The notes below the pieces were generated by a model, which saw nothing but the letters and a program-made list of their open reading frames with translations, was not told the DNA's origin and did no database searches. A DNA stretch of 64,000 nt from NCBI GenBank assembly GCA_964425765.1, contig CAYRNZ010000001.1:19082-83081 (forward strand). The letters run 5' to 3'. Both the position numbers and the translations under genes were made by a program. The stretch is from an uncultured Synergistaceae bacterium. GTDB taxonomy: Bacteria > Synergistota > Synergistia > Synergistales > 79-D21. Position 1 is the first letter of the stretch; each line of letters opens with the position of its first letter. Below are positions 23,198 through 40,654 of this stretch, in pieces.

Positions 23198-23536
23198 TCA
23201 GGGAATGATCAGTTCGATGCGGCGAACACCTGACTTGACCGTCAGGACCCGGTAACCCAGGTTCCATCTGTCTTCCAGCACGGGACGGACCTGCTTGCGA
23301 GTTTCCCAGGCCAGGTCGCCGCTCGTACCGTTTTCCGGCGTTTTCCCGTAAAGCAGGTCCAGGCGCAGGCGGGAAGCCTCCTCGACAAATGCTTCCTGCT
23401 GTCGGGCCTCCGCCAGGGCCCGCTCCGAGAGAAGAATGAGCCGGAGGGCCCCGGCGCCCGCCAGGCCCATGACCGCGACGGCCACCAGGACTTCAAGAAG
23501 GGTAAAGCCGGGGCCGCGCCGTGGCGGTCTTTTCAT
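23198..23536 (-). CDS. minor pseudopilin, GspI-like
   Basis: 112-aa ORF with a prepilin N-terminus MKRPPRRGPG|FTLLEVLVAV. Size fits GspI; the subfamily assignment rests on size and position only. Confidence 0.65.
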   Translation of the reverse strand: MKRPPRRGPGFTLLEVLVAVAVMGLAGAGALRLILLSERALAEARQQEAFVEEASRLRLDLLYGKTPENGTSGDLAWETRKQVRPVLEDRWNLGYRVLTVKSGVRRIELIIP

Positions 23537-26598: not shown

Positions 26599-26604
26599 GG
26601 GGGG

Positions 26605-27534
26605 CTACATCTCCTTCCAGGAAGCTATCCTGCAGCGTCCGGAATCCTTCACGAGTACGGCCTCGAAGCGGCGGACCAGAGTTCCCTTCCTGACCTCGAC
26701 CTCCGCCAGGAAATGGGAGCTGGTGAACGAAACAAGACCGTCGAGCCGCGGCCTGAGCCCCGGAGGGAAGCCGGGTATGCCGGCCAGGTCCTCCCAGCCT
26801 TCCAGGGGATTCTTTGCCCGCCTTTCGACGATTTCCCGGATCACGCCCCGCGTCAGCGACGGGTCCAGGAGGGCGAGGGCCTCGGGGTGGGCCGCGTTGA
26901 AATTGATCCTTCCATCGCCCTGGACCGTCAGGAGCCGGCCGAGCCCGGGGCGCGCCTTTCCATTCTTTCCGTAATAGAGGCTTTCGTCAATGCCGGGACA
27001 AAGCAGGAGCTCCTCGAGGGCGGAAGGGGCCCTGTTGATGCAGGAATCCGTCTCGGAGCCGCCGGGGCGCGGGGTCCTGTCCGCATCCAGGAAGTCGAGC
27101 ACGACGGGGGCCAGTCCCGGCTTCCCGGCCTCTTCCCAGAGGGTTTCCCAAGGCCCCTCGAGTTCCCGCCGAAGCGTGGAGCCGTCGGGAAGGAAAAGCC
27201 CGGCCAGCGGCAGGGCCCTGTTTTGCGGGGCAAGGGCGACCGTGACGGAAGCCGCCGTCCCGAGGGGGACGGGCCAGGTGGAAAACCATGGCTCGAGCGG
27301 GGAATCATAGGCGTTCCCGTCCAGCACGAGCCCCTTCCTGGCGGCGTGGACGACGGTTTCGGCCAGGCTCCGGGCCTCAAGGGAAAAGGCGGTCGCTTCC
27401 GCTTTCCGCAGTTCCGTCCTTGAAAACCAGGCTAAGGCCAGCGATCCCGTCACGAGAATCGAGACGGACAGGAGGACGGCCACGAGGACGAAGCCCCGTT
27501 GTTTACCGTTATAGGGGTGCGAGCGTGTCCGCAT
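26605..27534 (-). CDS. gspK: minor pseudopilin GspK
   Basis: 309-aa ORF. Prepilin-like N-terminus lacking Glu+5 (QRG|FVLVAVLLSV), as is typical of GspK, with a large C-terminal body. Confidence 0.7.
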   Translation of the reverse strand: MRTRSHPYNGKQRGFVLVAVLLSVSILVTGSLALAWFSRTELRKAEATAFSLEARSLAETVVHAARKGLVLDGNAYDSPLEPWFSTWPVPLGTAASVTVALAPQNRALPLAGLFLPDGSTLRRELEGPWETLWEEAGKPGLAPVVLDFLDADRTPRPGGSETDSCINRAPSALEELLLCPGIDESLYYGKNGKARPGLGRLLTVQGDGRINFNAAHPEALALLDPSLTRGVIREIVERRAKNPLEGWEDLAGIPGFPPGLRPRLDGLVSFTSSHFLAEVEVRKGTLVRRFEAVLVKDSGRCRIASWKEM

Positions 27535-28120
27535 GGGTGGCCAGTGTTTCCTTTCGCCCGATTTTCAGGGAGATTCCGGCCGGGAGAGGGCCGGAGTAGT
27601 CCTCGACCCAGGCTTTGCCGTCAAAGACCTCGACCTCGAAACGGTCGGCATTTTTTACCACGAGGACAGCCGATACGGGCTCCAGCCGGGCCAGGTCGAC
27701 CTCGGCGGGAGTCATTCCCGGGAAAGTCCAGCGATAGAGGCCGGGAGTCATGCCCTCGCTGAAGGGGCCCGGCTCGAGGAGCGCGTAGACCTCGGTTCCC
27801 GAAGGGCTCCTGCGGGCCAGCGGGGCCGCCGTCCAGAACGCGAGGGTGTCCGAACGCCTGTCGCCCGCCCCCCCCCTTAGGGTTCTAAATGGCGTCTTGC
27901 CGCCCCTGGGGAGATTCTGCCTGCACTCCGAAGCTATGGACCGCACCGCATAGGAGAGCGCGGCGCCGGACGCATAGTCCTGCCGGACGGCATCGAGGCG
28001 GACGACAAGAGCCGTCAGCGGACCGATGGCGAGCGCCGCCACAAGGCCTGTAAGGCTTACCGCGACGAGCACCTCCACGAGGGTGAAGGCGCGTTTCCGT
28101 AAAGGGGGATTGCCGCTCAT
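27509..28120 (-). CDS. minor pseudopilin, GspJ-like
   Basis: 203-aa ORF with prepilin N-terminus MSGNPPLRKRA|FTLVEVLVAV. Size and its position before gspK fit GspJ. Overlaps gspK by 26 nt. Confidence 0.6.
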   Translation of the reverse strand: MSGNPPLRKRAFTLVEVLVAVSLTGLVAALAIGPLTALVVRLDAVRQDYASGAALSYAVRSIASECRQNLPRGGKTPFRTLRGGAGDRRSDTLAFWTAAPLARRSPSGTEVYALLEPGPFSEGMTPGLYRWTFPGMTPAEVDLARLEPVSAVLVVKNADRFEVEVFDGKAWVEDYSGPLPAGISLKIGRKETLATHADTLAPL

Positions 28121-29553: not shown

Positions 29554-29562
29554 AAAGAAAGA

Positions 29563-29593
29563 GGGAGGCGGTTTTTCCCGCCTCCCCGTTTTT
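29563..29593. terminator. bidirectional rho-independent terminator between convergent CPBP and citF genes
   Basis: aaaagaaaga-GGGAGGCGG-ttttt-CCGCCTCCC-cgttttt. A 9-bp perfect stem with A/T runs on both sides. Confidence 0.75.
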
Positions 29594-29618: not shown

Positions 29619-31169
29619 TTACTTTTTCTTCAGCTGCTTCACGACGTCGATGACCGTGCCGTCCCGCCACTCGATGACCCCGATGATGCGATCCTCGGTT
29701 TCCACCGGGTCGGTGGGTCCGCACATCTCGTGGGCCCGTGCGACGAGTTCGTCCATGGAGACGAGGGGCACGTTGCCGGCCGTTTTGCAGGCATCCACAA
29801 GGTCCTGCCGGCGCGGGTTGATCGTGACGCCGTATTCCGTGACCAGCGCGTCCACGACCTCGCCCGGCGTGGTGACCGAGTAGACCTGGTCGACGACGCA
29901 GGGGATGCGGCCGCGGAGCAGGGGCTGGCTGATGATGGTGAGCTTGGCCCCCGCGGCGGTGTCCTGGTGCCCGCCGATGCCGTGCAGGAGGGCGCCGTCC
30001 GCCTCGGTGTTCACGTTCACGTTGAAGTCACGGTCCATCTCGGTGGCGCCAAGGATGACCACGTCGAGCATGTTGACCGCGGTCCCCGCGTTCCAGGGGT
30101 TGGCGTACCAGTCGGCCGAGATCTCGATGTGGTTGGGGTTCTCGGCGATGGACTTCACGGCCTCGAGGTCGAAGGACTGGACGTCCATGAGTTTCTCGAC
30201 ATAGCCTTCCTTGAGCAGGTCGACGAAGTAGCCCGTGATGCCGCCAAGGCCGAAACTTCCCTTGATCTGCCGCTTTTTCATCGCTTCCTTCATGAACGCC
30301 GTCACCGCCAGGGAGATGCCGCCGGCTCCCGTCTGGAAGCTGATGCCTTCCTTGAAGTAGGGGCTGGCCTCGATGAGGCGCGAAGCGTACTTGGAGATCA
30401 GAAGGCGCAGGGGATCGCGGGTGACCCGCGTCGTTCCCGAGACGATGCCCGCCGGGTCGCCGATGCTGTCCATGACGGCGACGATGTCGACGTAGACCTG
30501 CGAGATGGATACGGGCGATGCCGGGAATGGGACGAGGTTGTCCGTCACCGCCACGACGCAGTCGGCGTACATGGCGTCCGTGAAGGCGTAGCCCAGCGAC
30601 CCGCAGGCGGACTTGCCCTGCGAACCGCAGAGGTTGCCGTAGGCATCGGCCGTCGGGGCGGCCACGAAGGCCACGTCGATCTTCACGTCTCCCGACACGA
30701 CCGCCCTGGGCCTGCCGCCGTGGCTGCGCAGTACGACGGGCATCTCCATGCCGCCCTCGGAGACCATCTGCCCGATGGGGCCGTTGACGGAGCCCATGAT
30801 CCGGCGGATGACCCCGCTCTTGATGTGCTCGATCAGTTTCTTGTGAACCCCGAAGAGGGCCGTCGGGAAGAGGGTCAGGTCCCTGATGCCCATCTCGGCG
30901 CAGGCGTCGATGACCGCGTTGACCACGTAGTCGCCGTTCCGGAGGTGGTGGTGGAACGACACCGTCATGCCGCTCTTCAGTCCCGATGCCGCGATGGCGG
31001 CCTTGAGGTCGGGGACGACCTTGCTGGTGCGGTCGTTGAACGCCGAGCGGAGTTTCGGCCCGGCTCGGTTCCCCTCGGGTTTCCGGGCGTGCTCGCCCAT
31101 GAAGGGGAGCGTCTTGCCGTAACCTTCGATGAATTCCGGGATTTCCCGTCCAAGGATGTTCTTAGGCAT
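29619..31169 (-). CDS. citF: citrate lyase alpha subunit (citrate CoA-transferase) family
   Basis: 516-aa ORF with a CitF-like N-terminus (…LKSGMTVSFHHHLRNGDYVVN…) and full-length CitF-like organisation. Overlaps citE by 8 nt. Confidence 0.88.
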   Translation of the reverse strand: MPKNILGREIPEFIEGYGKTLPFMGEHARKPEGNRAGPKLRSAFNDRTSKVVPDLKAAIAASGLKSGMTVSFHHHLRNGDYVVNAVIDACAEMGIRDLTLFPTALFGVHKKLIEHIKSGVIRRIMGSVNGPIGQMVSEGGMEMPVVLRSHGGRPRAVVSGDVKIDVAFVAAPTADAYGNLCGSQGKSACGSLGYAFTDAMYADCVVAVTDNLVPFPASPVSISQVYVDIVAVMDSIGDPAGIVSGTTRVTRDPLRLLISKYASRLIEASPYFKEGISFQTGAGGISLAVTAFMKEAMKKRQIKGSFGLGGITGYFVDLLKEGYVEKLMDVQSFDLEAVKSIAENPNHIEISADWYANPWNAGTAVNMLDVVILGATEMDRDFNVNVNTEADGALLHGIGGHQDTAAGAKLTIISQPLLRGRIPCVVDQVYSVTTPGEVVDALVTEYGVTINPRRQDLVDACKTAGNVPLVSMDELVARAHEMCGPTDPVETEDRIIGVIEWRDGTVIDVVKQLKKK

Positions 31170-32049
31170 TGTCGGTTCCCTCCTCCAGGAGGCCCGCCCG
31201 GGTGAGCGTGAAGAGAGCCCTCTTCACGACGGGGGCGTCCACCATACGTCCGTCCACCTGCACGGCACCGAGTCCCCGCTCCGCGGCTTCCTTAGCCGCC
31301 GCAACGATCTTCCGGGCGCGCTCGATTTCCTTCTCCGTCGGTGTGAAGACCTCGTGGATGACGGGAATCTGGTTCGGGTGGATGACGCTCTTGCCGTCGA
31401 AGCCGAGTTGCTTGATGAACGCCGTTTCCCGCTTCAGCCCCTCGTCGTCGGTGATCCGGGGGAAAACCGTGTCGAGTGCGTCGACGCCGGCTGCCCGGGC
31501 GGCCACGATCACGGTTTTGCGGATGCCTTCGAGCTCGGTTCCCTCGGGTGACCGGTTGGTCCTCAGGTCGGCGGTCAGGTCCTCGCCGCCCGGGATGACC
31601 GCGGTCACGCGCGGGGACGCCGTGGCGATGTCGTAGGTGTTGAAGATGCCCTTCGCCGTCTCGAGCAGGCAGAAGATCTTCGTCCTGCCGACTTCGAGCC
31701 CCGCTTTCGCCTCGATCTCGGAGAGGGCTTCGTCGAGCTGCCTGACCGTGGCGGCGTCGTCCACCTTGGGGGCGCGGACGCCGTCCAGCCTGCCCAGCGG
31801 GACGAGGGTTTCGATGTCCTTTCTCCAGTACTCCGTGTCGAGGCCGTTGATCCTCACGGTGACCTCGCAGGAGCCGAACTCGCCTCTCTTCAGGACGTCC
31901 CGGATGAGGATGCGGGCCGCGTCCTTCTCCCGGACGGCGACGGCGTCCTCCAGGTCCAGGATCAGGCCGTCCGGGGCGAAAAGATGCCCCCGGAGAAGCA
32001 TGTTGGGGTTGTTGCCGGGAAGGTAGAGCATCGTGCGACGCAGCCTCAT
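31162..32049 (-). CDS. citE: citrate lyase beta subunit (citryl-CoA lyase) family
   Basis: 295-aa ORF; MRLRRTMLYLPGNNPNMLLRG…LILDLEDAV… is typical of the HpcH/CitE fold. Confidence 0.88.
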   Translation of the reverse strand: MRLRRTMLYLPGNNPNMLLRGHLFAPDGLILDLEDAVAVREKDAARILIRDVLKRGEFGSCEVTVRINGLDTEYWRKDIETLVPLGRLDGVRAPKVDDAATVRQLDEALSEIEAKAGLEVGRTKIFCLLETAKGIFNTYDIATASPRVTAVIPGGEDLTADLRTNRSPEGTELEGIRKTVIVAARAAGVDALDTVFPRITDDEGLKRETAFIKQLGFDGKSVIHPNQIPVIHEVFTPTEKEIERARKIVAAAKEAAERGLGAVQVDGRMVDAPVVKRALFTLTRAGLLEEGTDNA

Positions 32050-32318
32050 GCCTCTTCCCCTCCCTTCAGCCTGGCGACGGCCGCCTCGACGCGGGCCTTC
32101 AGCACCAGGTCGAGCGCCCCGTTGTCCTGGACCGAGACGGTCATGTCGGTGATTTCCAGGTTGTCCAGGGTGTCACGGACCGCCTTGTCCATGGCCTTCG
32201 AGAAGCGGGCCACGCTGGCGCCGGCGAGGGCCAGGGAGATTCCCGTCCCCGGGCCGGCCTCGGACACCGTGACAAGGCAGTCCATGGATTCCACGGTTCC
32301 GGCTTGTGCGGTTCTCAT
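32046..32318 (-). CDS. citD: citrate lyase acyl carrier protein (gamma subunit)
   Basis: Track ORF (32046..32465) trimmed to ATG 32318 (GAAGGAGG upstream). 90 aa. N-terminal AGTVESMD matches the prosthetic-group serine motif of CitD (AGTLESGD in E. coli, recalled). Confidence 0.85.
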   Translation of the reverse strand: MRTAQAGTVESMDCLVTVSEAGPGTGISLALAGASVARFSKAMDKAVRDTLDNLEITDMTVSVQDNGALDLVLKARVEAAVARLKGGEEA

Positions 32319-32406
32319 GGTGTTGACCTCCTTCGGTTTCACGATTCCTATGCGAAAGGGGCCCACCGCGCTGCAGTGGGCCCCTCGGGGTCCTTTTGGC
32401 CGGTTC

Positions 32407-33657
32407 CTACTGGGGCAGGTGCTCCCAGGCGCACATCTCCTTCGCCTTCGCGGAGAACTGCGCATCGAACTTGTCGTAGTCCGGCAGGATCTTCCGGGCG
32501 ACGGCGCGGGCCATGTCGAGGGTCGAGACGGCCTTCTTCTCCCACTCCGGATCGCCGTTGTCGCGGAACACGTCGTAGGTCAGGTCCTTGCCTTCGACGA
32601 GGACGGCGCTGATGGCGGCCTCAAGCTTTTTGGCAGCTTCATCGAGGCCGAGGTACTCGAGCATCATCGTGGCGGCGTTCAGGAGGCCGCAGGGGTTGAT
32701 CTTGTACTGGTGGGCGTACTTCGGCACGGAGCCGTGGCTGGGCTCGAACAGCGCGAAGTCCTTCCCGATGTTGCCGCTGGGGGCGAATCCCATGCCCCCC
32801 ACGAGCTGGCTGGCTTCGTCGGAGAGGATGTCGCCGAACACGTTCGGCGTCACGACGACCTGGTAGTCCTGCGGGTTCTTGATGAGCCACATGGCGGTTG
32901 CGTCGGCGTTCTCGTCGATTGCCTTGATGTCGGGATATTCCTTCGCGATGGCCAGGAAGATCTCCTTGAACATGCCGTCCGTGGCGCGGATGACATTGGC
33001 CTTCGTGGCGCAGACGACCTTGTTCCGGCCGGTGGCCTTGGCGTACTCGAAGGCGGCGCGGATGATGCGCTCGCAGCCTTCCTTGGAGAAGACCTTCCAG
33101 GAGACGGCGACCTCTTCCTTGTCCTTGAAGCGGGCCATACCGGGGTGCATCTCGAAGTGTTCCTTCGGGGTGGGGCGGAACTCGACGGCGGCGTAGAGGT
33201 CTTCCGTGTTCTCACGGAACATGACGATGTCGACCTTGGGGTCGCCCTTCAGGGGGCAGATGATGCCCGGCATCGACTTCGCGGGGCGCAGGTTGATGTA
33301 GAGATCGAACAGCTGGCGCATCTGCAGGATGGCGGACTTGAAGCCCTTCACGCCGGCCTTGGAGGTGATGGCGGCCATGAGGGCGGCGTCGCTCTCGCGG
33401 AGGGTCTTCTTCGTTTCCTCGGGAACCGTGTTGCGCTTCGGGTCGCCCTCGGGGAGCTCGAGGCAGGACTTGGCCCACATGCACCAGCCCATGTCGGCGC
33501 GAACCCAGTCGATGGGCAGGCCGAAAGCCTTGTCCATGGCCTGCATGACGATCATGGCGCCTTCCATGACGTCGAAGCCGGCGTCGTCCCCGGGGATGTA
33601 GGCGACCTTGTAACGGGGCTTCGTTTCCTTCACTTTAAGGACGTTGCGGATATCCAT
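32407..33657 (-). CDS. isocitrate/isopropylmalate dehydrogenase-family beta-decarboxylating dehydrogenase (substrate uncertain)
   Basis: Start set at ATG 33657 (AGGGAGGG upstream). 416 aa. Family motifs YIPGDDAGFDV, LYINLRPAK, FRENTEDLY and NVFGDILSDEASQLVGGMGFAPSGNIG. The substrate loop KSAILQMRQ deviates from E. coli Icd RSLNVALRQ. Confidence 0.85.
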   Translation of the reverse strand: MDIRNVLKVKETKPRYKVAYIPGDDAGFDVMEGAMIVMQAMDKAFGLPIDWVRADMGWCMWAKSCLELPEGDPKRNTVPEETKKTLRESDAALMAAITSKAGVKGFKSAILQMRQLFDLYINLRPAKSMPGIICPLKGDPKVDIVMFRENTEDLYAAVEFRPTPKEHFEMHPGMARFKDKEEVAVSWKVFSKEGCERIIRAAFEYAKATGRNKVVCATKANVIRATDGMFKEIFLAIAKEYPDIKAIDENADATAMWLIKNPQDYQVVVTPNVFGDILSDEASQLVGGMGFAPSGNIGKDFALFEPSHGSVPKYAHQYKINPCGLLNAATMMLEYLGLDEAAKKLEAAISAVLVEGKDLTYDVFRDNGDPEWEKKAVSTLDMARAVARKILPDYDKFDAQFSAKAKEMCAWEHLPQ

Positions 33658-33729
33658 CTGGCTATTGCCCTCCCTTGGATTGTTTGTTTTTTCCACGGGG
33701 GCGCGGGGAGAACCCCGCGCCCCCGGTCT

Positions 33730-34230
33730 CTACTTGGAAAGTCCCAGCGACTTCTTGACGTGGGGGATCAGCCCGCCGTCCTCGATGAGGCCCCGGACGA
33801 ACTCGGGGTAGGGCGGGAACTTGAAGACCTTGCCGCCTGCGGTCCTGATCTCGCCGGAGTCGAAATCCACTTCGACCGTTTCCCCGGCGTTGACGGCGTC
33901 GACGGCTTCCGCCGAAACGATGATCGGCAGCCCCTCGTTGAGGCAGTTGCGGTAGTAGATGCGGGCGAAACCCTTGGCGATGATCGCGCCGATGCCCCGC
34001 TCCTTCAGGCAGGTGACGGCCTGTTCGCGGCTGGAGCCGCAGCCCCAGTTCTTCCCGCCGACGATGATGTCGCCGGGCTGGGCGTTTTTCGTGAACTCGG
34101 GATCCAGGTCTTCCAGGGCGACCTTGGCCATCTCCGCGCGATCCTTGATCGTGTAGGTGTACTTCCCGGCGAAGATGACGTCGGTGTTGACGTCATCCCC
34201 GTATTTCCAGACCTTTCCCTGGATCTTCAT
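33730..34230 (-). CDS. LeuD/HacB-type hydro-lyase small subunit (pair 1)
   Basis: 166-aa ORF; GDDVNTDVIFAGKYTYT… and …WGCGSSREQAV… are typical of aconitase-superfamily swivel-domain subunits. Confidence 0.85.
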   Translation of the reverse strand: MKIQGKVWKYGDDVNTDVIFAGKYTYTIKDRAEMAKVALEDLDPEFTKNAQPGDIIVGGKNWGCGSSREQAVTCLKERGIGAIIAKGFARIYYRNCLNEGLPIIVSAEAVDAVNAGETVEVDFDSGEIRTAGGKVFKFPPYPEFVRGLIEDGGLIPHVKKSLGLSK

Positions 34231-34232
34231 GG

Positions 34233-35489
34233 TTACAGCACCTCCCGCGGGTCGGCGATCTCGCCCTTCAGGGCGGAGGCGGCGACGGTCATGGGGCTGG
34301 CGAGGTAGATGAAGCTCTCCTTGTTGCCCATGCGCCCCTTGAAGTTACGGTTGGCAGTCGAGATGCAGGCTTCGCCGGGGGCGAGGATGCCCTCGTGGTT
34401 GCCCATGCAAGGCCCGCAGCCGGGGTTGGTGATGACGCACCCGGCGTCCATGAAGACCTCGAGCAGCCCTTCGTCCATGGCCTGGCGGTAGACCCTCCAG
34501 GAGGCGGGGATGACGATCGTGCGGACGGCGACTTCCTTGCCCTTGAGGATGCCCGCGGCGACGCGCAGGTCCTCGATGCGGGCGTTGGTGCAGCTGCCCA
34601 GGAAGGCCTGGTGGATCTTCGTTCCCTTGACCGCGTCGATGGGGGCCCAGTTGTCGACGGTATGCGGCTTGGCGACGCAGGGGAGCAGTTCGGCAAGGTC
34701 GTAGGTCAGTTCCTTGGCGTAGACGGCGTCGTCGTCGGCCCAGATCGCTTCCCACTCGCTCGTCTTCTCGATTCCCCTAATGGCATCGAGGACCTTCTTG
34801 TCCGGCGGGCAGACGGCGTTCTTCGCGCCCATCTCGATGCCCATGTTGCAGAGGGTCATCCGCTCGGCGATCGTCATTTCCTCGATTGCGGGACCGTGGA
34901 ACTCGACGGACATGTAGTCCGCGCCGTCGGCCTTGATATCGCCGATGATCTTCAGGATCAGGTCCTTGGCGGAGACGCCCTTGTTGAACTTGCCCTTCAC
35001 GGTGATTTTCAGGGACTCGGGGACGCGGAACCAGATCTTGCCGGTCGCCCAGGCCGCGGCCATCTCGCTGCGGCCGATGCCCGTGGAGAAGGCCCCGTAG
35101 GCCCCATAGGTGCAGGTGTGGCTGTCGCTGCCGATCATGATGAGCCCGGGGAGCGCGAAGCCCTCCTCGCACATCTTCTGGTGGCAGACGCCGCCCTTGC
35201 TGGTGACGTCGTAGAAGTGGGGGATTCCCTGCTCCTCTACGAATTCCCTGATTTCCTTGTGGTTGATGGCGTGTTCGTCGGTCGGGGCCGGGATCGCGTG
35301 GTCCAGGATGAAGACCAGGTGGTCCGGCTTCCAGACCTTCGGGACGCCGATCTTCTTGAAGGTCTTGGCGATCGGGGCGGCGTTGTCGTGGCTCATGCAG
35401 AAATGGGGCTCGACCGTGACGACCTCGCCGGCCTTGACCGCGTAACCCGCTGCCTTGCCCAGTACCTTCTCAGCAAACGTCATGCCCAT
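34233..35489 (-). CDS. LeuC/HacA-type Fe-S hydro-lyase large subunit (pair 1)
   Basis: 418-aa ORF. Fe-S ligand motifs GSDSHT, GSCTNARIEDL and NPGCGPCMG. Stop lies 2 nt before the small-subunit start. Confidence 0.88.
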   Translation of the reverse strand: MGMTFAEKVLGKAAGYAVKAGEVVTVEPHFCMSHDNAAPIAKTFKKIGVPKVWKPDHLVFILDHAIPAPTDEHAINHKEIREFVEEQGIPHFYDVTSKGGVCHQKMCEEGFALPGLIMIGSDSHTCTYGAYGAFSTGIGRSEMAAAWATGKIWFRVPESLKITVKGKFNKGVSAKDLILKIIGDIKADGADYMSVEFHGPAIEEMTIAERMTLCNMGIEMGAKNAVCPPDKKVLDAIRGIEKTSEWEAIWADDDAVYAKELTYDLAELLPCVAKPHTVDNWAPIDAVKGTKIHQAFLGSCTNARIEDLRVAAGILKGKEVAVRTIVIPASWRVYRQAMDEGLLEVFMDAGCVITNPGCGPCMGNHEGILAPGEACISTANRNFKGRMGNKESFIYLASPMTVAASALKGEIADPREVL

Positions 35490-35504
35490 GAGTCGTTCGC
35501 CTCC

Positions 35505-36032
35505 CTACTTCTTGGCCGCCTGGGCCTTCAGGTACTCGATCAGGCCGCCGCTGGCCATGATGTCCTTCTCGAGGTCCGTGACCGCATCGCCCTTGAAGGT
35601 GTTGCCGTTGGTCACGTCCTTGATTTCTCCCGTGGCGATGTTCACTTCCAGGTCGTCGCCGTCCTGGATCTTGCCGGCCTTGATGGCATCGCTCAGGCCG
35701 TTGACGAAGAGCACCGGGTAGCCGTTGTTGATGGCGTTGCGGTAGTAGATGCGGGCGAAGGATTCCGCCAGCACGACGGGGACGCCCAGTTCCTTCAGGC
35801 AGTAGACGGCATGTTCGCGGCTGGAACCGCAGCCGAAGTTGCGCCCGGCCACGACGAAATCTCCGGGCTTGGCTTCCTTGGCGAACTTCTCCTTGCCGGG
35901 GTAGTACTCGAAGGAGAACTGGGCCATCTTCTTCGGGTCCGTCTCGGCGAGGTACTTGTTGTGGTAGATCAGGTCCGTGTCGACGTCGTCGGTGAAGACC
36001 CAGGCTTTTCCGCGCAGGACGCTCTGTTCCAT
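35505..36032 (-). CDS. LeuD/HacB-type hydro-lyase small subunit (pair 2)
   Basis: 175-aa ORF; [17 protein letters not shown]… and …[11 protein letters not shown]…. Confidence 0.85.
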
Positions 36033-36060
36033 GGTCTGTCCCTCCTTAAACCTGTGGAGC

Positions 36061-37338
36061 CTACTTCAGGATGTCCCGCGGGTCGGTGAGGACGCCCTTC
36101 ACCGCGGAAGCCATCGCCGTCATGGGGCTGACAAGGTACGTGTGGCTGCCCTTGCCCACCTTGCCGATGAAGTTCCGGTTCGTGGTGGAGACGCCCACGT
36201 CGCCGCCCGGGAGCACGCCGTAGTGCTCGGCGGTGCAGAGGCTGCAGGTCGGGTTCGTGAAGATGACGCCCGCCTCCAGGAACTTCTGGATGAATCCCGC
36301 CTCGGCGCACTGCTTCATGACCTCGCGGGTGCTGGGGGTGATGATCGTCCGCACGCTGTCGCTGACCTTGAAGCCGGAGAGCTTCAGGATCTCGAAGGCG
36401 GCGGCGATGTCCTCGAACCGGCCGTTGGAGCAGGAGCCGATGTGGACCTGGTCGATGTGTGCGCCAGCGGCCTCGCGGACGGTCTTCACGTTGTCCGGGG
36501 CGTCGGGGCAGGAGGCCATCGGCTCGAGGTTCGTCACGTCGAAGTGCAGGTCGTCGCTGTAGACGGCGTCGGCATCGGCCCTGATGGCCTCCACGCGGTC
36601 GAGGACTTCCTTGCCGGCACGCTCGACCAGCCAGTCGAGGACTTCCCCGTTGGGCATGATGAGCCCGACCTTGCCGCTCATCTCGGTCACCATGGAGCAG
36701 AGGGTGATCCGGTCGGCCAGCGAGCTCTTCTCGATGGTCTCGCCGTAGAACTCGACGGCCTTGAAGAACATGCCGTCGGCGCCGAGCTTGCCCACCAGGA
36801 AGGTGAGGTAGTCGCGCATGCAGACGCCCTTCTTGAAGGATCCAGTGGTCGTGATCTTCATGGTCTCCGGGACGCGGAACCAGAGGGTCCCGTTGATCCA
36901 GGAGGCGACGATGTCGGTGTTGCCCACGCCGGAGGCGAAAGCACCGACGCCGCCCAGCAGGTTCATGTGGCTGTCGGTCCCGAGGATGACATCACCCGGC
37001 TTCACGAGCCCGTGCTCGAGCAGGACGTGCTGGCCGATGCCCCAGTTGACGTCGAAAACCTTGCTGATGCCCTGGCGCTTGGAGAAATCGCGGATGATCT
37101 TCTGGTTGTTGGCCACTTTCTCGGCGTGGGCCGGGGCCTGGAGGTCGAAGGTGAAGGCGATCTTGTCGGGATCCCAGACCTTCGCCTTGTCCGTCACCTC
37201 GTCGAACTGCAGGACGCAGTTCGGGCCGCCGAAATCGCGAGCCGTGGAAAGGTCGATGTTGCACCAGACCCGGTCCCCTACCTTGGCTTCCTTGCCGGAA
37301 GCCCTCTGGATGATCTTTTGGATCATCGTCTTGCCCAT
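36061..37338 (-). CDS. LeuC/HacA-type Fe-S hydro-lyase large subunit (pair 2)
   Basis: 425-aa ORF. Motifs [17 protein letters not shown] and a variant third Cys motif [13 protein letters not shown] (usual form is CGPCxG). Confidence 0.85.
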
Positions 37339-37374
37339 GGCGTTACACCTCCCGTTTGAATTGGTGGGAAAACT

Positions 37375-37932
37375 CTACTTCATTCCGAGGAACGACTTGA
37401 TGGTCTCGAAGTTCACGAAGTCGGCCTTGTTGACGACGACGCCCTCGGGGCTCCGCAGGGTGCCGTCTCCCTCGTGGGCGTGGTTGGCGATGATGTGGCC
37501 GATGTCGCTCGAAACGCCGTTGCGCAGGGCCAGTACCGTTCCGGAGAAGGGATGGCGGAGGTCCTTGCCCATCTGGGACTTCACCGTCGCCCCGTCCGGG
37601 GATTTCTCGTACTCGACCAGCTTGCCCACGTCGTGAAGGATGGCGCCGGCCATGAGCTTGTCATGGTTCAACTGGAAGCCGCCCTCGTCCTTGTAGAGGG
37701 CGTTGAACTCCTCGTAGACCCTCTTGCACACGCGGGTGACGCCCCGGGTGTGTGTCAGGTAGGAAGCTGGGCAGTTCGGGATGAGGAGCGTGAAGGGGAT
37801 CTTCGTCATGTCCTCGGGTTCCCAGCCCCCGGTCTTCAGGGCGTCCACGTAGGTGTCGATGACCTGTTCCCGCAGTTTCTGGTCCGTGATCCAGTTGATC
37901 TCAGGCAGCAGTTCCACGATCTTCTCTCTCAT
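37375..37932 (-). CDS. HD-domain metal-dependent phosphohydrolase
   Basis: 185-aa ORF; H…HD motif (AILHDVGKL) and downstream His residues (ANHAHEGDG). Confidence 0.75.
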   Translation of the reverse strand: MREKIVELLPEINWITDQKLREQVIDTYVDALKTGGWEPEDMTKIPFTLLIPNCPASYLTHTRGVTRVCKRVYEEFNALYKDEGGFQLNHDKLMAGAILHDVGKLVEYEKSPDGATVKSQMGKDLRHPFSGTVLALRNGVSSDIGHIIANHAHEGDGTLRSPEGVVVNKADFVNFETIKSFLGMK

Positions 37933-37992
37933 GTTTCTTCCCTCCCGTGACTTGGTTTGTAAAGCCTGTCGCGATGCTCTATCGACGCTTGA

Positions 37993-38694
37993 TCATCCCT
38001 GTTCTTCCAGGGAGATGCTTTCCTGCAGGGTATGGTAGACGCGTTCGATGTGGGTGCCCGCTATTTTCGCCGCCAGTTTCGCGTCGTGGTCGACGATGGC
38101 GGTGTAGAGGCCCGAGTGCTCCTTGAGGAAGGCCTGCTTGTCCGTCAGGCAGCCGTAGATCCGCTCGTGGGTCGCCATGATGAGGTTGAAGGTCATCTTT
38201 GCGATGTTGACGAAGATGAAGTTGTGGGTCGCCTCGGCCAGGGCCAGGTGGAAGTCGAAGTCACACTGCGCGCGGTGTGCCGAGGACTCCAGGTTCTGCT
38301 CCGTGCGGGAAAGGACGCGGCGGATTTTCGTCAGGTCGGCGGGTAGGGCGCGCTTGGCAGCCTCTCCGGCGATGGCGGGATCGATGATTCGCCGGGCTTC
38401 CATGAGCTCGAGCACGGCCGCCCCTTCGAGCGGGATGTTGCGGGATTCACCGCTCTCCGTGACCGGCCTGCGCACGAAACGCCCCTTGCCGGGGACGCTT
38501 TCGATGAGGCCGATCAGCTCGAGCACGCGGAAGGCTTCCCTTAGGGAGCTGCGGCTCACGCCCAGATCTTCCATCATCTGGCGCTCGGGGGGCAGGGGGT
38601 CGCCGGGGCGGAGCTCTCCCCGGGAGATGAGGTCCTTCAGCTCTTCCACGACTTTCTCGTAGATGCGCGTCGGTTTGACTTTCCTGGTTTCCAT
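37993..38694 (-). CDS. GntR-family (FadR/FCD subfamily) transcriptional regulator
   Basis: Start set at ATG 38694 (GGAGG upstream; METRKVKPTRIYEKVVEELKDLI…). Winged HTH (PPERQMMEDLGVSRSSLREAFRVLELIGLIES) and an all-helical FCD-like C-terminal domain. Confidence 0.88.
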   Translation of the reverse strand: METRKVKPTRIYEKVVEELKDLISRGELRPGDPLPPERQMMEDLGVSRSSLREAFRVLELIGLIESVPGKGRFVRRPVTESGESRNIPLEGAAVLELMEARRIIDPAIAGEAAKRALPADLTKIRRVLSRTEQNLESSAHRAQCDFDFHLALAEATHNFIFVNIAKMTFNLIMATHERIYGCLTDKQAFLKEHSGLYTAIVDHDAKLAAKIAGTHIERVYHTLQESISLEEQG

Positions 38695-38726
38695 GGGAAC
38701 CCTCCTAGCGTGGACCACCCAGTGCA

Positions 38727-38755
38727 CTTATATACCTGACCCGTGGAAAGCGCAA
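38727..38755 (-). promoter_or_regulatory. sigma70-like promoter candidate for gntR and possibly the whole operon
   Basis: Minus strand: TTGCGC (38755-38750), 17 nt, TATAAG (38732-38727). Predicted TSS is about 25 nt upstream of ATG 38694, which argues against the ORF-track start at 38727. Confidence 0.4.
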
Positions 38756-39064: not shown

Positions 39065-40642
39065 TTGAAGTGGAAGAAAACGGCAATACCGATCCTTTTG
39101 TCCTGCTCGATCGGCTTCCTGCCGGCGGTCCAGGCCTGGAACGGCGCGGCGGAGGCCGCGGTCCGGACAGCCGCCAGCGCACCCGCCAAGGGGGCCAAGC
39201 TCCCCGCCGGTTCCACGGGTTACAATGCCTTCTACGTTTCACTGGAATGGCTCAGGCTGAACATGAACGGGGTCGTCCTGCTGGACGCCCGCCCGGCGTC
39301 TCTTTACGCAGGCGGACACATACCGGGAGCCCATAACGCCGAGTGGCAGTCCTTCAGCTCGATGAAGGGAGCCCCGGGCAGCCGGGGATGGGCCACGCTG
39401 CTGGCCCAGAAATCGCTCGCGGCGCGTATCGGAGCGCTCGGGATCGACGGCAGCCGTCCCGTCATCGTCTACGGGGAACCCGGGACATGGGGACAGGACG
39501 GGTTTGTCGCCCTCACCCTGCGCATGGCGGGGGTCCAGGGAGTCCGCATCCTGGACGGCGGCTGGACGGCCTGGCGCTCCGCAGGTTTGCCTGTGACGAA
39601 AGCGGTTCCCAAGCCCAGGCCGGCCAACTTCGCGATCAGGAAATACAGGGACGATCTCAACGCCACCGTGGACCATATCCGGGAAAGGCTTCTTTCGGCA
39701 AAACTGCTGGACGTCCGCACCCTGGAGGAATACAAGGGGGCCCGGTACTTCAGCGAAAAGCGCGGAGGACACCTCCCGGGGGCCATCCTGGTACCCTATA
39801 ACCAGCTAGTGGGCAGGGACGGAATGCTTCTGCCGGAGCCGGACCTCAAGGCCCTGTTCCAGGAGGCGGGCCTGTCGCCCGAGGACGAGATCGTCGTCTA
39901 CGACACCGCAGGGGTCCGCTCTGCCTACGCTGCCTGGGTAATGCTGATGCTGGGCTACACGAACGTGAGGAACTACGACGGTTCGTTCCACGAATGGGCC
40001 GGGATCCCCGAGCTCACGGTGGAAACCGGCGATCCCGGCGAACAGCCGGTCCTCAGCGCAACCAAGCCACAGCCCGTTTCCCCGCCCCCGGCGGCCGCTC
40101 CCGCCCCGAAGCCGGCCCCTCCCGCGGTGCGGTCGGCAGACGCCAAGCCCGCCGGGAAGACCGAGGCCCCGGCCGCGGTCACCCCCGCAACTGTGCAGCC
40201 TGCTGTCCAAAACCCCGCCGGAAGGGTTCCCATCTCCATACCCCCCGTTTCGCCGGACGTGGATTACAAAAGCGTGAAGCCCATCCCCATCGGGGTACCC
40301 AAGGTTTCCCCCAGCGTCACGTCCGCGGACTCCAAGCCCGCGGCGGCTAAAATCCTGGCGATCCGCTGGAACAGGGACGATCACAGGATAAGGATGGTCG
40401 TGGACCTCGACCGCACCCTGGAGCCCCGGATCGTCGTCAACCCGGGGGTCGTCGAGCTGGCTTTCGGTGCGTTCCCGGTCAAGGAGATCGCCGGCATGAC
40501 ATCCCCGTTTGCGAAGGAGGTGTCGTTGACCGCTGCCGAAACGGCGGTCGGCACGACCCTGAAGTTCTCCCACAGACTGAAAAAGGTGCGCCATTTCCGG
40601 CTGGAAAAGCCTGACCGCTACGTGGTGGACTTCGAGTTCTAG
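39065..40642 (+). CDS. exported (possibly lipoprotein) tandem rhodanese-homology protein lacking the catalytic Cys, with Pro/Ala-rich linker and C-terminal AMIN domain
   Basis: 525-aa ORF, TTG start. Signal peptide MKWKKTAIPILLSC (LLSC resembles a lipobox). Two rhodanese-like domains; the second carries IVVYDTAGVRS…YDGSFHEW, where the active-site Cys position is Asp. About 100 aa of P/A-rich linker. C-terminus (ILAIRWNRDDHRIRMVVDLD…RYVVDFEF) matches the AMIN pattern. Confidence 0.8.
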   Translation: MKWKKTAIPILLSCSIGFLPAVQAWNGAAEAAVRTAASAPAKGAKLPAGSTGYNAFYVSLEWLRLNMNGVVLLDARPASLYAGGHIPGAHNAEWQSFSSMKGAPGSRGWATLLAQKSLAARIGALGIDGSRPVIVYGEPGTWGQDGFVALTLRMAGVQGVRILDGGWTAWRSAGLPVTKAVPKPRPANFAIRKYRDDLNATVDHIRERLLSAKLLDVRTLEEYKGARYFSEKRGGHLPGAILVPYNQLVGRDGMLLPEPDLKALFQEAGLSPEDEIVVYDTAGVRSAYAAWVMLMLGYTNVRNYDGSFHEWAGIPELTVETGDPGEQPVLSATKPQPVSPPPAAAPAPKPAPPAVRSADAKPAGKTEAPAAVTPATVQPAVQNPAGRVPISIPPVSPDVDYKSVKPIPIGVPKVSPSVTSADSKPAAAKILAIRWNRDDHRIRMVVDLDRTLEPRIVVNPGVVELAFGAFPVKEIAGMTSPFAKEVSLTAAETAVGTTLKFSHRLKKVRHFRLEKPDRYVVDFEF

Positions 40643-40654
40643 GGGGGCCGGCCG

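Follow-up and report, generated by a model that had tools for sequence, protein, structure and literature searches.

The block of ten genes described here is real and conserved, looks like a single operon, and probably serves to break down a 2-oxo acid, for example 2-oxoglutarate, to acetate. Our favoured reading, to which we assign a probability of about 0.38 (0.35–0.4 for the substrate set), is that of a GntR-controlled catabolic operon that would run the chemistry of 2-oxoacid chain elongation backwards, with 2-oxoglutarate and citrate as the most likely substrates.

Gene content, operon structure and conservation

An earlier note on this DNA had described ten co-directional minus-strand genes, and all ten open reading frames were found where it had placed them (29619–38694). 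Their products follow the order GntR/FCD regulator, HD protein, two LeuC/LeuD-type hydro-lyase pairs, Iso_dh-family dehydrogenase and CitD-CitE-CitF.

38695–38755, minus strand: 5' leader with a weak sigma-70-like promoter candidate and the gntR ribosome-binding site AGGAGG, read from the sequence
37993–38694, minus strand: GntR/FCD transcription regulator, first gene (Pfam GntR 70.6 bits, FCD 70.9 bits)
37375–37932, minus strand: HD-domain metalloprotein, 185 aa, neighbour of pair 1 (Pfam HD)
36061–37338, minus strand: pair 1 large subunit, LeuC-like, with a divergent active site (Pfam Aconitase)
35505–36032, minus strand: pair 1 small subunit, LeuD-like, loop YLAE (Pfam Aconitase_C; TIGR02087 subfamily, 172 bits)
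34233–35489, minus strand: pair 2 large subunit, LeuC/HacA-like (Pfam Aconitase; PRK00402, 565 bits)
33730–34230, minus strand: pair 2 small subunit, loop YTYT (Pfam Aconitase_C)
32407–33657, minus strand: Iso_dh-family beta-decarboxylating dehydrogenase with NADP-type signature and non-canonical substrate loop (Pfam Iso_dh 296 bits)
32046–32318, minus strand: CitD-type acyl carrier protein, gamma subunit (TIGR01608, 68.2 against a cut-off of 63.5)
31162–32049, minus strand: CitE-type acyl-ACP oxo-acid lyase, beta subunit (Pfam HpcH_HpaI 209 bits)
29619–31169, minus strand: CitF-type acetyl-ACP:hydroxyacid transferase, alpha subunit (TIGR01584, 660 against a cut-off of 501)
29562–29587, minus strand: intrinsic terminator hairpin at the operon end (10-bp stem with 8 G-C pairs, 6-nt loop, T-rich tail)

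Calculated from these coordinates, the intergenic gaps from gntR to citD are 60, 36, 28, 15, 2, 72 and 88 nt, and the last two junctions (citD/citE and citE/citF) show the claimed overlaps of 4 and 8 nt. The proposed start codons likewise hold, that of gntR (ATG 38694) having the Shine-Dalgarno sequence AGGAGG 6 nt upstream and those of the dehydrogenase (ATG 33657) and citD (ATG 32318) agreeing with ortholog lengths and alignment. The strong hairpin terminator predicted for the operon end is present; the only further minus-strand site resembling a terminator (38942–38930) is upstream of the operon, and a terminator scan found none on the minus strand within it. The promoter proposed at 38727–38755 can be seen by direct reading (TTGCGC-17-TATATA/TATAAG) but is too weak to reach the reporting strength of a consensus promoter scan.

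A search of gene neighbourhoods found both pairs, the dehydrogenase and CitDEF together on one strand in 75 other contigs. As the same order is repeated in these independent contigs (protein identity 64–99%), the arrangement is not due to chance, and this order, the tight spacing, the single terminal hairpin and the lack of an internal minus-strand terminator together support the claim of one operon. In most Synergistota loci the GntR gene stands at the head of the cluster. The operon occurs in many amino-acid-fermenting Synergistota, among them the cultured glutamate fermenters Thermanaerovibrio acidaminovorans, which has the same ten genes, and Aminomonas paucivorans, which has the full cluster. 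Genes next to the operon that could hint at the substrate vary between loci, each being seen once. No published description of this operon or route was found in the literature.

Motif divergence in the proposed route

In the favoured reading the Iso_dh-family enzyme would reductively carboxylate a 2-oxo-dicarboxylate, at the expense of NADPH, to a 3-substituted malate, which pair 2 would dehydrate to an ene-acid and which pair 1, with the HD protein somehow participating, would rehydrate to a 2-substituted (tertiary) hydroxy acid. The two pairs would thus each perform one half-isomerisation, after which the ACP-type CitDEF would cleave the tertiary acid to acetate and a 2-oxo acid that has lost two carbons relative to the lyase substrate but, because of the CO2 added, only one relative to the 2-oxo acid at the start. 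The likely chain would be 2-oxoglutarate -> isocitrate -> cis-aconitate -> citrate -> acetate + oxaloacetate, with 2-oxoglutarate derived from glutamate, histidine, glutamine or arginine; here we infer substrates, direction, cofactor and any role of the HD protein alike. The use of two hydro-lyases has precedent in the alpha-aminoadipate pathway, where homocitrate dehydration and homoaconitate hydration are carried out by different enzymes.

Among the operon proteins only CitF and CitD reach NCBIfam equivalog cut-offs, in both cases those for citrate lyase, and CitD conserves the prosthetic-group serine (GTVES versus GTLES in E. coli), which argues for citrate. CitF and CitE are 47 and 44% identical to their E. 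coli counterparts. CitE, however, scores 328 with TIGR01588, under the cut-off of 443, and the activating genes citC, citX and citG are missing from the window (the whole 64-kb stretch analysed), which both weigh against citrate. The CitE score, and a second-best match of CitE to the itaconate-pathway citramalyl-CoA lyase RipC, lend something to a methyl-branched alternative that we consider unlikely. Here CitDEF would be a citramalate lyase, pair 1 would interconvert citramalate and citraconate or mesaconate, and pair 2 and the dehydrogenase would be LeuCD/LeuB-like enzymes acting on citraconate, 3-methylmalate and 2-oxobutyrate. Such an operon would either turn 2-oxobutyrate, CO2 and NADPH into pyruvate and acetate or complete a glutamate fermentation of the methylaspartate type, from which a side route would lead to 2-oxobutyrate and propionate. 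A single LeuCD normally performs both citramalate half-reactions, so that the presence of two pairs would be left unexplained.

Comparison of the subunits with models for LeuCD, HacAB and aconitase returned only generic or subfamily assignments. The pair 1 large subunit (PRK00402, 449 bits) falls below the cut-offs for LEU2 (361 < 611), HacA (348 < 550) and aconitase PRK07229 (237 < 612), its small subunit below those for LeuD (147 < 246) and HacB (149 < 230), and the pair 2 large subunit, which is 40% identical to that of pair 1, below those for LEU2 (476 < 611) and HacA (478 < 550). The loops to which the earlier note had drawn attention are conserved, GKYTYT in 42/42 pair 2 orthologs and NKYLAE, within an identical 16-residue stretch, in 49/50 pair 1 orthologs; like that of the dehydrogenase, these substrate loops are non-canonical specificity motifs, invariant or almost so. 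The unmet cut-offs and invariant novel loops together support the earlier suggestion that neither pair is a standard biosynthetic enzyme. Pair 1 retains the three cluster Cys of the large subunit and the GSSRE catalytic motif of the small subunit; relative to IPMI and HACN of M. jannaschii its large subunit shows the invariant changes vhD to ARD, DSHTCTHG to DSHMNLLG and NRNFrGR to NRNFIGK, and it has an extra active-site Arg where both have His, a point in favour of the citrate chain. The pair 2 large subunit has the canonical motifs SHD, DSHTCTYG and NRNFKGR. The loop of its small subunit reads YTYT, where the solved relatives compared have YLVY, YNLT and YLRT, and contains no basic residue, and the best solved relative is the small subunit of M. 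jannaschii isopropylmalate/citramalate isomerase (154 bits versus 123 for that of HACN); both features disfavour citrate and point to the methyl-branched substrates.

The dehydrogenase had been assigned to the IDH family, and this stands as to the Iso_dh family and the NADP-type K-Y pair (PKYA, as in IDH, versus PDIA in LeuB). Assignment as a canonical IDH is ruled out, as no equivalog cut-off is reached (IDH PRK09222, 281 < 509; best match the homoisocitrate dehydrogenase AksF2, 303 < 540) and the substrate loop KSAILQMR (versus RS113LN115VALR in E. coli IDH and RGALLPLR in LeuB) has Ile in place of Asn115, which in E. coli IDH binds the isocitrate gamma-carboxylate. Its orthogroup is isolated, with representatives dropping from at least 66% to at most 48% identity. 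For the citrate chain, the enzyme retains Ser113, the T-S pair, the NADP-type K-Y pair and all catalytic Arg, Tyr, Lys and Asp residues; against it, besides the lost Asn, the loop is of the class S-[AP]-[ILV]-[ILV], shared with proteins named methanogen homoisocitrate dehydrogenase in their source, and not S-x-N-V as in IDHs. The hydrophobic Ile-Leu, where E. coli LeuB has Leu-Leu, would suit methyl-branched substrates, whereas the polar T-S, Ser113 and K-Y would not, LeuB having G-G, Gly and D-I.

The AksF2 match and the loop class bring in a further alternative, to which we give little credence: a reversal of the upper alpha-aminoadipate pathway, in which 2-oxoadipate + CO2 + NADPH would pass through homoisocitrate, cis-homoaconitate and homocitrate to acetate + 2-oxoglutarate. 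If true, it would connect lysine or aminoadipate carbon to 2-oxoglutarate without a need for oxygen, and its enzymes might also take the next shorter homologue, thus overlapping with the citrate version. That pathway is the known case requiring two separate hydro-lyases, but the pair 2 loop does not contain the Arg of the homoaconitase motif YLRT, and we know of no homocitrate lyase.

Gene-neighbourhood links and physiology of the carriers

The HD protein, to which the earlier note gave no part in the route, is the obligate neighbour of pair 1, and no other partner of that pair is so tightly linked to it. With the Geosporobacter copy it shares 70% identity; H61, H100-D101, H127, H146, H151 and D171 are invariant, and its AF2 model (pLDDT 93) finds its best PDB fold matches in generic HD phosphohydrolases (YhaM, 1XX7, PgpH). 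HD and pair 1 also form a separate module, about 70% conserved, that the earlier note had missed.

In Clostridia this module lies beside citCDEFXG, PrpF and carboxylate transporters (TctABC or CitMHS/DASS-type) without pair 2 or the dehydrogenase, suggesting that pair 1 acts on the lyase's own substrate. These transporters speak against citramalate; the occurrence of PrpF- and PrpD-family genes with pair 1 and CitDEF speaks for it. The loci with PrpF recall nicotinate fermentation, which employs a PrpF-like isomerase and the LeuCD-like DmdAB. In a Planctomycetota metagenome-assembled genome (L061), which also has the GKYTYT loop, the same HD, pair 2, dehydrogenase and pair 1 set follows a citryl-CoA lyase of the citrate-synthase fold (NF004869, 271 > 212), which, going by its fold family, uses oxaloacetate. 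This pairing counts against both citramalate and homocitrate. Both independent contexts favour the citrate chain and agree with the general logic put forward earlier, in which a 2-oxo acid is linked to acetate and a 2-oxo acid of shorter chain by way of an enzyme of the IDH family, two hydro-lyases and a lyase of the ACP type; this is the most economical reading. On one metagenome contig (L138) the dehydrogenase is followed by an NhaC-type transporter and by a protein that exceeds the cut-off for L-lysine 6-transaminase, a point for homocitrate chemistry. This adjacency looks incidental, since the gene for the transaminase is conserved across the Synergistota and has glycine reductase genes as its neighbours in T. 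acidaminovorans and A. paucivorans.

Six termite-gut Synergistaceae loci have HD, both pairs and the dehydrogenase with no adjacent lyase. They would fit a separate and rather improbable arrangement around a citrate node, in which the dehydrogenase works oxidatively, taking citrate through aconitate and isocitrate to 2-oxoglutarate for glutamate synthesis, while CitDEF breaks down imported citrate in parallel and the GntR regulator senses citrate. IDH-family enzymes usually work oxidatively, and in Enterococcus the GntR-family activator CitO controls the citrate lyase genes. The GntR protein here reaches no NCBIfam equivalog cut-off, its nearest models being LldR, GlcC and NanR. Against such a node, the operon lacks a citrate transporter, and indeed any transporter, in all 75 Synergistota-type loci, these organisms live on amino acids with small need for glutamate synthesis, and co-transcription is better explained by a linear pathway than by two competing citrate sinks.

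13C-NMR work by Plugge et al. in 2001 reportedly identified the methylaspartate route as the most likely source of acetate in T. acidaminovorans, in which case the lyase would be a citramalate lyase and the citrate chain would be disfavoured. Extracts of this organism grown on glutamate, 2-oxoglutarate or succinate showed citrate lyase activity, with methylaspartase and hydroxyglutarate dehydrogenase undetected (PMC3035242), which favours citrate over citramalate. IDH activity was also undetected in these extracts (PMC3035242), a result that counts against the citrate chain and for the methyl-branched one. The organism ferments lysine to acetate + propionate, as homocitrate chemistry would allow, and grows on citrate, as the citrate node would (PMC3035242). 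A. paucivorans produces acetate + formate from Glu, His, Gln and Arg, but neither citrate nor lysine supports its growth, and it does not use mesaconate or methylaspartate (PMC3035310), which tells in turn against the node, homocitrate and the methyl-branched chain. As it carries the cluster, the lyase substrate must be made inside the cell, which, with the transporter-free operon, agrees with the favoured reading. The inconstant flanking genes count somewhat against that reading. Given the missing isocitrate-binding Asn and the undetected IDH activity, citramalate- and homocitrate-type substrates stay in play, and sequence cannot decide among the three chains.

If the favoured reading is true, the operon, acting with an NADP-linked glutamate dehydrogenase and with decarboxylation of oxaloacetate, would convert glutamate to NH4+, acetate and pyruvate in a fermentation that would be both redox-neutral and B12-independent.

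The operon and its surroundings

Ten open reading frames on the minus strand form a block that an earlier note had described as a single operon, a description borne out by open reading frame calls, Pfam matches, and a gene order conserved among relatives. The start codons chosen there agree with ortholog lengths, and a strong AGGAGG site precedes gntR. Intergenic gaps span 2-88 nt, with overlaps of 4 nt between citD and citE and of 8 nt between citE and citF. The hairpin terminator described as closing the block was found, and a terminator scan returned no internal minus-strand terminator-like sites within the operon; the promoter candidate upstream of gntR can be read in the sequence but is weak. 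The regulator carries a winged helix at its N-terminus (PF00392, 70.6 bits) and an FCD domain at its C-terminus (PF07729, 70.9 bits), as expected of the GntR/FadR type.

Features of the operon
29619-38694, minus strand: block of ten open reading frames with Pfam domains GntR/FCD, HD (185 aa), Aconitase and Aconitase_C twice, Iso_dh, CitD, CitE, and CitF
37375-37932, minus strand: HD protein
36061-37338 and 35505-36032, minus strand: large and small subunits of hydro-lyase pair 1
34233-35489 and 33730-34230, minus strand: large and small subunits of hydro-lyase pair 2
32407-33657, minus strand: dehydrogenase of the Iso_dh family
29562-29587, minus strand: terminator hairpin with a 10-bp G+C-rich stem and T tail, closing the operon

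Protein matches place the window, which has a G+C content of about 65%, in the Synergistota, with uncultured Synergistaceae nearest (92-98% identity) and Aminomonas paucivorans and Thermanaerovibrio acidaminovorans the next relatives (64-83%). Further loci were gathered in two scans, one of species-representative genomes with the HD protein as query and one of metagenome contigs with the dehydrogenase as query, and were annotated by local BLASTP against the window's proteins. This gene-neighborhood search, for which the earlier note had called, shows that the combination recurs: across both scans, pair 1, pair 2, the dehydrogenase, and CitDEF stand on one strand and in the same order in 75 contigs, a count that leaves out the separately retrieved loci of cultured organisms, and all ten genes are present in T. 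acidaminovorans and in A. paucivorans DSM 12260. Given 75 contigs of the same order, the arrangement is more than chance. The HD protein, both pairs, and the dehydrogenase also occur without adjacent CitDEF, in six termite-gut Synergistaceae loci and one Planctomycetota metagenome-assembled genome (MAG). In seven loci from termite-gut and related Synergistaceae (L013-L016, L019, L057, and L060), most of them without adjacent CitDEF, a gene for a 164-aa pyridoxamine-5'-phosphate-oxidase-like protein separates the small-subunit gene of pair 2 from the dehydrogenase gene.

The flanks are unrelated to the operon, with Lgt and type II secretion/pseudopilin genes downstream and genes for a rhodanese-domain protein and a PRK-like kinase upstream. 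The type II secretion/type IV pilus-like set (18113-28120, minus strand), just downstream of the operon's terminator region, comprises a secretin, GspE-like, GspF-like, and GspL-like proteins, and several pseudopilins with N-methylation motifs; pseudopilin genes are also found upstream of the cluster in the Planctomycetota locus, L061. Upstream of gntR and divergent from it (39065-42295, plus strand) are genes for a rhodanese-domain protein of 525 aa, whose long tail is rich in Pro and Ala, and for a PRK/uridine-kinase-like protein of 546 aa, and since these genes keep their position in many Synergistota loci, synteny reaches beyond the operon. A divergent gene immediately upstream of gntR in gut and digester Synergistaceae (L055:5432-6967, 15 other genome-scan loci, and further metagenome contigs) encodes a 511-aa B12-binding radical-SAM protein with only weak similarity to P-methyltransferases. 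None of the recurrent flanking genes (B12/radical-SAM, PRK-like kinase, rhodanese, UDP-glucose dehydrogenase) is informative about substrate. The sole tandem repeat in the window, 3.7 copies of the 12-nt unit CCGCCGCCTCCT (42649-42692), lies at the 3' end of a DUF2207 membrane-protein gene. Scans of the 64-kb window for tRNAs and Rfam families gave no match, and a riboswitch explanation for the operon was dropped because the Rfam scan was empty.

The lyase, the dehydrogenase, and the hydro-lyase pairs

Three enzyme orthogroups in the operon are named by no curated model, and the only proteins to reach an NCBI equivalog cut-off are two subunits of the ACP-type lyase, CitF (TIGR01584, 660 bits against 501) and CitD (TIGR01608, 68.2 against 63.5). 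CitE falls below its cut-off (TIGR01588, 328 against 443) and matches only Pfam HpcH_HpaI. In CitD, the serine for the prosthetic group (phosphoribosyl-dephospho-CoA) is kept, GTVES aligning with GTLES of E. coli. These features of a three-subunit lyase, together with a regulator at the operon head, recall the citCDEFXG operons of Klebsiella, E. coli, and lactic acid bacteria, and complete citCDEFXG sets enclose the Clostridial relatives of the HD protein and pair 1. Unlike those operons, however, this one has no citC, citX, citG, or citrate transporter, either within it or in the 64-kb window (tblastn with E. coli and Geosporobacter CitC, CitX, and CitG as queries), its CitE is below cut-off, its lyase is merely 44-47% identical to that of E. 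coli, and the lyase shares the operon with two hydro-lyases and a dehydrogenase that citrate fermentation does not need. The citC, citX, and citG genes may lie elsewhere in this genome; CitG or CitC adjoins the cluster in three relatives (L056, L131, and L138). Similarity was also tried as a means of calling the enzyme a citrate or a citramalate lyase, but the mutual identities of 39-47% among the lyases of the window, the Clostridia, and E. coli decide nothing.

The dehydrogenase lies below every NCBI model cut-off, its best matches being to AksF2 homoisocitrate dehydrogenase (303 bits against 540) and NADP-IDH (PRK09222, 281 against 509), with 210 bits against 567 for IDH (TIGR00183). In an alignment with IDH and LeuB from the E. 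coli K-12 genome, the catalytic residues Arg119/129/153, Tyr160, Lys230, and Asp283/307/311 (E. coli IDH numbering) are kept, as are the T-S pair, Ser113, and the NADP-type Lys344-Tyr345 (PKYA, as in E. coli IDH; PDIA in LeuB). Ser113 and Asn115 of E. coli IDH hold the γ-carboxylate of isocitrate; in the window enzyme Asn115 is replaced by Ile, followed by Leu (KSAILQMR as against RSLNVALR), and the pattern of retained Ser with Asn changed to Ile is found in 40 of 42 orthologs. The orthogroup is isolated in a 50%-identity representative library, where identity drops from at least 66% to at most 48%. Among the nearest outgroups, those with S-x-N-V are IDH-like, one being so named by its source, and those with S-P-[ILV]-[ILV] include the Planctomycetota copy and a protein that its source calls "methanogen homoisocitrate dehydrogenase". 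The window enzyme belongs to this second, homoisocitrate-like loop class yet has the NADP-type K-Y, and Thermus-type homoisocitrate dehydrogenase (HICDH) has Arg at the position of its Leu. Judged by these residues, the combination of loop class and K-Y sets the dehydrogenase apart from canonical IDH, from IPMDH, and from Thermus-type HICDH.

Both hydro-lyase pairs keep the three cluster cysteines (C...CxxC) and the DSH motif in their large subunits and the GSSRE serine (GCGSSRE) in their small subunits, as in [4Fe-4S] hydro-lyases of the aconitase superfamily, and so look like competent Fe-S hydro-lyases. Identity between the pairs is 40% for the large and 42% for the small subunits. The large subunits pass generic "aconitase/IPM dehydratase/homoaconitase family" models only, with scores for pairs 1 and 2 of 361 and 476 bits against 611 for LEU2 (TIGR02083), 348 and 478 against 550 for methanogen HacA (NF040615), and 237 and 315 against 612 for aconitase (PRK07229); the AcnA and AcnB models are far under their cut-offs. 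The small subunits likewise miss LeuD (TIGR02084, 147 and 171 against 246) and the HacB models (at most 166 against 230).

Small-subunit specificity loops
Pair 1: YLAE
Pair 2: YTYT
M. jannaschii IPMI: YLVY
P. horikoshii LeuD: YNLT
M. jannaschii homoaconitase: YLRT

The loop of pair 1 is conserved in 49 of 50 orthologs and that of pair 2 in all 42, and neither corresponds to the hydrophobic YLVY of the M. jannaschii isopropylmalate isomerase or contains the arginine of the homoaconitase YLRT. Pair 2, whose loop is uncharged, has an isopropylmalate/citramalate isomerase subunit as its closest solved relative. The large subunit of pair 1 is the more aberrant of the two, with three invariant active-site changes relative to both M. 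jannaschii enzymes (ARD for (v/t)hD, DSHMNLLG for DSHTCTHG, and NRNFIGK for NRNF(r/k)GR) and an extra active-site Arg. The earlier note had given the two M. jannaschii motifs correctly, and its judgment that neither pair looks like a standard biosynthetic enzyme is upheld by novel, invariant loops and by the failure to reach any LeuCD, HacAB, or aconitase cut-off. A reading of these genes as housekeeping LeuCD/LeuB was rejected on the same grounds and for want of linkage to leuA or ilv genes, none of which is in the operon; a study of the Synergistetes CodY regulon lists separate ilv and leuC genes (PMC9318921).

In its isomerase and dehydrogenase families the operon resembles the modules of 2-oxoacid elongation (LeuABCD, methanogen AksA/DE/F, and LysS/TU/HICDH), its closest solved relatives being M. 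jannaschii IPMI/HACN subunits and Thermus IDH and HICDH. It departs from them in having a lyase in place of the condensing synthase and two isomerase pairs rather than one, along with an HD partner, while every equivalog cut-off for these modules is missed and the loops YLAE, YTYT, and KSAILQMR match no characterized enzyme.

The HD protein and its link to pair 1

The HD protein, treated in the earlier note as a bystander, forms with pair 1 a linked module that was overlooked there. Between the window and Geosporobacter ferrireducens the HD proteins are 70% identical and the pair 1 subunits 68-73%, as against just 38-46% for CitDEF, and in Clostridia the HD protein and pair 1 occur without pair 2 or the dehydrogenase, inside citrate-lyase loci.

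Clostridial loci with the HD protein and the large (C1) and small (D1) subunits of pair 1
Acidaminobacter hydrogenoformans: PrpF-TctB-TctA-TctC-PrpF-CitC-D-E-F-HD-C1-D1
1.15-Mb Clostridial contig: the Acidaminobacter order plus CitX, CitG, and GntR
Geosporobacter: PrpD-LysR-PrpF-PrpD-CitC-D-E-F-X-HD-C1-D1-CitG

Because the module is embedded in these loci, pair 1 would be expected to make or use the lyase's own substrate, and pair 2 with the dehydrogenase is an add-on characteristic of the Synergistota-type operon. In two Clostridium/Lachnoclostridium contigs, pair 1 and CitDEF have next to them, where the HD protein would be expected, an Amidohydro_2 protein (L066:14623-15450 and L068:9144-9974) with 4-sulfomuconolactone hydrolase as a weak best match; these loci also hold PrpF, a TAXI-TRAP or CitMHS/DASS-type transporter, and two paralogues of PrpD. 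The Amidohydro_2 protein may be a non-orthologous replacement for the HD protein or may reflect a different substrate further upstream, for instance a lactone, itaconate, or aconitate.

The HD protein has the fold and the H...HD...D metal ligands of HD-domain metal-dependent phosphohydrolases (PF01966, 42.8 bits), with H61, H100-D101, H127, H146, H151, and D171 as invariant candidate ligands, and its predicted model (pLDDT 93) resembles only generic HD phosphohydrolases (YhaM, 1XX7, and PgpH). A role as a stand-in for CitC, CitX, or CitG was rejected, since there are Clostridial loci that have the HD protein in addition to all three. In two Cloacimonadota MAGs, homologues of 43-44% identity (L064:377-919 and L065:996-1544) adjoin genes with TerB domains, and no aconitase-family or lyase gene lies anywhere near, so that the HD family is not limited to this pathway. 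In AcnD-PrpF and DmdAB-Mii, an enzyme of the aconitase family is teamed with a PrpF-family isomerase, and Clostridial pair 1 genes similarly adjoin PrpF-family genes; the window, in contrast, has no PrpF, and the universally conserved partner is the HD protein, for which those systems offer no equivalent.

Candidate routes and their significance

Taken together, these enzymes could run the chemistry of 2-oxoacid elongation backwards. The dehydrogenase would catalyze a reductive carboxylation, probably with NADPH, pair 2 would dehydrate the product, pair 1 with the HD protein would rehydrate it to a tertiary alcohol, and the ACP lyase would cleave this to acetate and a shorter 2-oxo acid. Starting from 2-oxoglutarate, the products would be acetate and oxaloacetate, and with glutamate dehydrogenase and oxaloacetate decarboxylation glutamate would yield NH4+, acetate, and pyruvate, an inferred stoichiometry whose balance would equal that of the methylaspartate pathway without B12. 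To this reductive citrate route we assign a probability just below 0.4. The earlier note's interpretation, a citrate- or citramalate-type route with a split aconitase role, finds partial support. Somewhat unlikely as a whole is the full claim of a new B12-independent, redox-neutral glutamate fermentation shared by Synergistota and, by way of the HD-pair 1 module, by some Clostridia, in which 2-oxoglutarate would pass with NADPH and CO2 to isocitrate, cis-aconitate, citrate, acetate plus oxaloacetate, and pyruvate, aconitase being split over two new LeuCD-type enzymes, one in need of a new HD partner, and the dehydrogenase being an IDH relative rebuilt at its substrate pocket.

The sequence 2-oxoglutarate to isocitrate to citrate to C2 plus oxaloacetate is also that of citrate cleavage in the reductive TCA cycle (IDH, aconitase, and ATP-citrate lyase or citryl-CoA synthetase/lyase). 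The proposed route differs in cleavage by an ATP-independent ACP-type lyase to free acetate, in an aconitase role spread over two LeuCD-type heterodimers, in a dehydrogenase without the IDH Asn, and in a purpose that would be fermentation, not CO2 fixation. A precedent for sharing aconitase-type half-reactions between two enzymes is found in the α-aminoadipate pathway, where homocitrate dehydration (aconitase) and homoaconitate hydration (homoaconitase) need different enzymes; here, however, both are LeuCD-type heterodimers encoded side by side, and their division of labor is inferred.

Evidence for the citrate series includes the passage of CitF and CitD through citrate-lyase models, the extra active-site Arg of pair 1, and the Tct and CitMHS/DASS-type transporters and PrpF next to pair 1 in Clostridia, PrpF belonging to a family described as including an aconitate isomerase for trans-aconitate assimilation. 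Like the reductive TCA segment, the Planctomycetota relative (L061) sets these genes beside citryl-CoA lyase: the order HD-pair 2-dehydrogenase-pair 1, different from that of Synergistota and without CitDEF, comes immediately after a short protein of citrate-synthase fold that exceeds the cut-off of a citryl-CoA lyase model (271 against 212), and this fold family uses oxaloacetate. Over the whole stretch (L061:8323-15200), a 260-aa protein with no Pfam or NCBIfam match and the citryl-CoA lyase precede the HD gene, a pair resembling pair 2, a gene of IDH type, and a pair resembling pair 1. No transporter gene is found in the operon, and A. paucivorans, which converts Glu, His, Gln, and Arg to acetate and formate, does not grow on citrate, 2-oxoglutarate, mesaconate, methylaspartate, or lysine (PMC3035310). 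The absence of a transporter and this inability to use citrate suggest that the lyase substrate is most simply made intracellularly from an amino-acid-derived 2-oxo acid. An oxidative "citrate node" is accordingly given little probability. T. acidaminovorans forms acetate and propionate from glutamate, 2-oxoglutarate, histidine, arginine, and lysine, and acetate from citrate, and its extracts have citrate lyase, glutamate dehydrogenase, and malate dehydrogenase activities; no methylaspartase, hydroxyglutarate dehydrogenase, or IDH activity was detected in them (PMC3035242).

That reported absence of IDH activity, in an organism whose extracts show citrate lyase, stands against a simple citrate reading, as do the loss of Asn115, the homoisocitrate-like loop class, the CitE score, and the uncharged YTYT loop of pair 2. 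A 2001 13C-NMR study reportedly favored the methylaspartate route in T. acidaminovorans. Together these observations keep citramalate and homocitrate versions of the route alive. A methyl-branched, citramalate version, for which the methylaspartate pathway of Clostridium tetanomorphum offers an ACP-type three-subunit lyase that yields acetate and a 2-oxo acid in a glutamate fermenter, is improbable; unlike that pathway, the operon has no glutamate mutase, methylaspartase, or class-I-fumarase-type mesaconase. A homocitrate version, to which the loop class of the dehydrogenase would be suited and the missing loop arginine would not, is very improbable, on a par with the oxidative node. A lysine link was considered from L138:13588-14952, two genes after the dehydrogenase, where a protein exceeds the equivalog cut-off for L-lysine 6-transaminase. 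This proximity is weak support, because the gene is Synergistota-wide (68-92% identity; L153 and L154, 10001-11383) and normally lies by glycine reductase genes, immediately upstream of them in T. acidaminovorans and A. paucivorans. A. paucivorans carries the gene although it is not a lysine fermenter. The remaining probability falls to some other function.

Other neighbors are sporadic. Directly after citF in one contig only (L131:11116-17088) stands a hydroxyglutarate-pathway-like set of D-2-hydroxyacid dehydrogenase, family-III CoA-transferase, dehydratase activase, and 2-hydroxyacyl-CoA dehydratase alpha/beta; an amino-acid-dehydrogenase-like gene with a sodium symporter was seen once (L015), and fumarase occurs at L020 and L030, the first of which also has malic enzyme.

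Full-text literature searches turned up no account of the operon, of an aconitase split over LeuCD-type enzymes and assisted by an HD protein, or of glutamate fermentation by a reductive citrate route, in line with the earlier note's statement that no characterized operon has this composition, and the recent Synergistota metabolic reconstructions among that literature do not mention it. The enzyme families are all known; what is new is their combination, the three unnamed orthogroups, and the HD partnership. Anaerobic digesters, guts, and the oral cavity all harbor abundant Synergistota. The breakdown of histidine, glutamine, and arginine converges on glutamate, and the route from glutamate to acetate in the phylum has been unsettled since the first enzyme surveys; the conserved operon is a concrete candidate for it. 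If true, the reductive citrate route would explain a published gap in T. acidaminovorans, which makes acetate from glutamate and has citrate lyase activity, while methylaspartase, hydroxyglutarate dehydrogenase, and conventional IDH activities could not be detected; should the homocitrate version hold, the operon would instead provide an oxygen-free way from 2-oxoadipate to 2-oxoglutarate. The operon is widespread, uncharacterized, and directly testable in two cultured organisms, and confirmation would add a pathway to the known fermentations, extend the LeuCD family by two substrate specificities, assign for the first time a function to an HD family of thousands of members, and supply a marker gene set for amino-acid fermentation in metagenomes.
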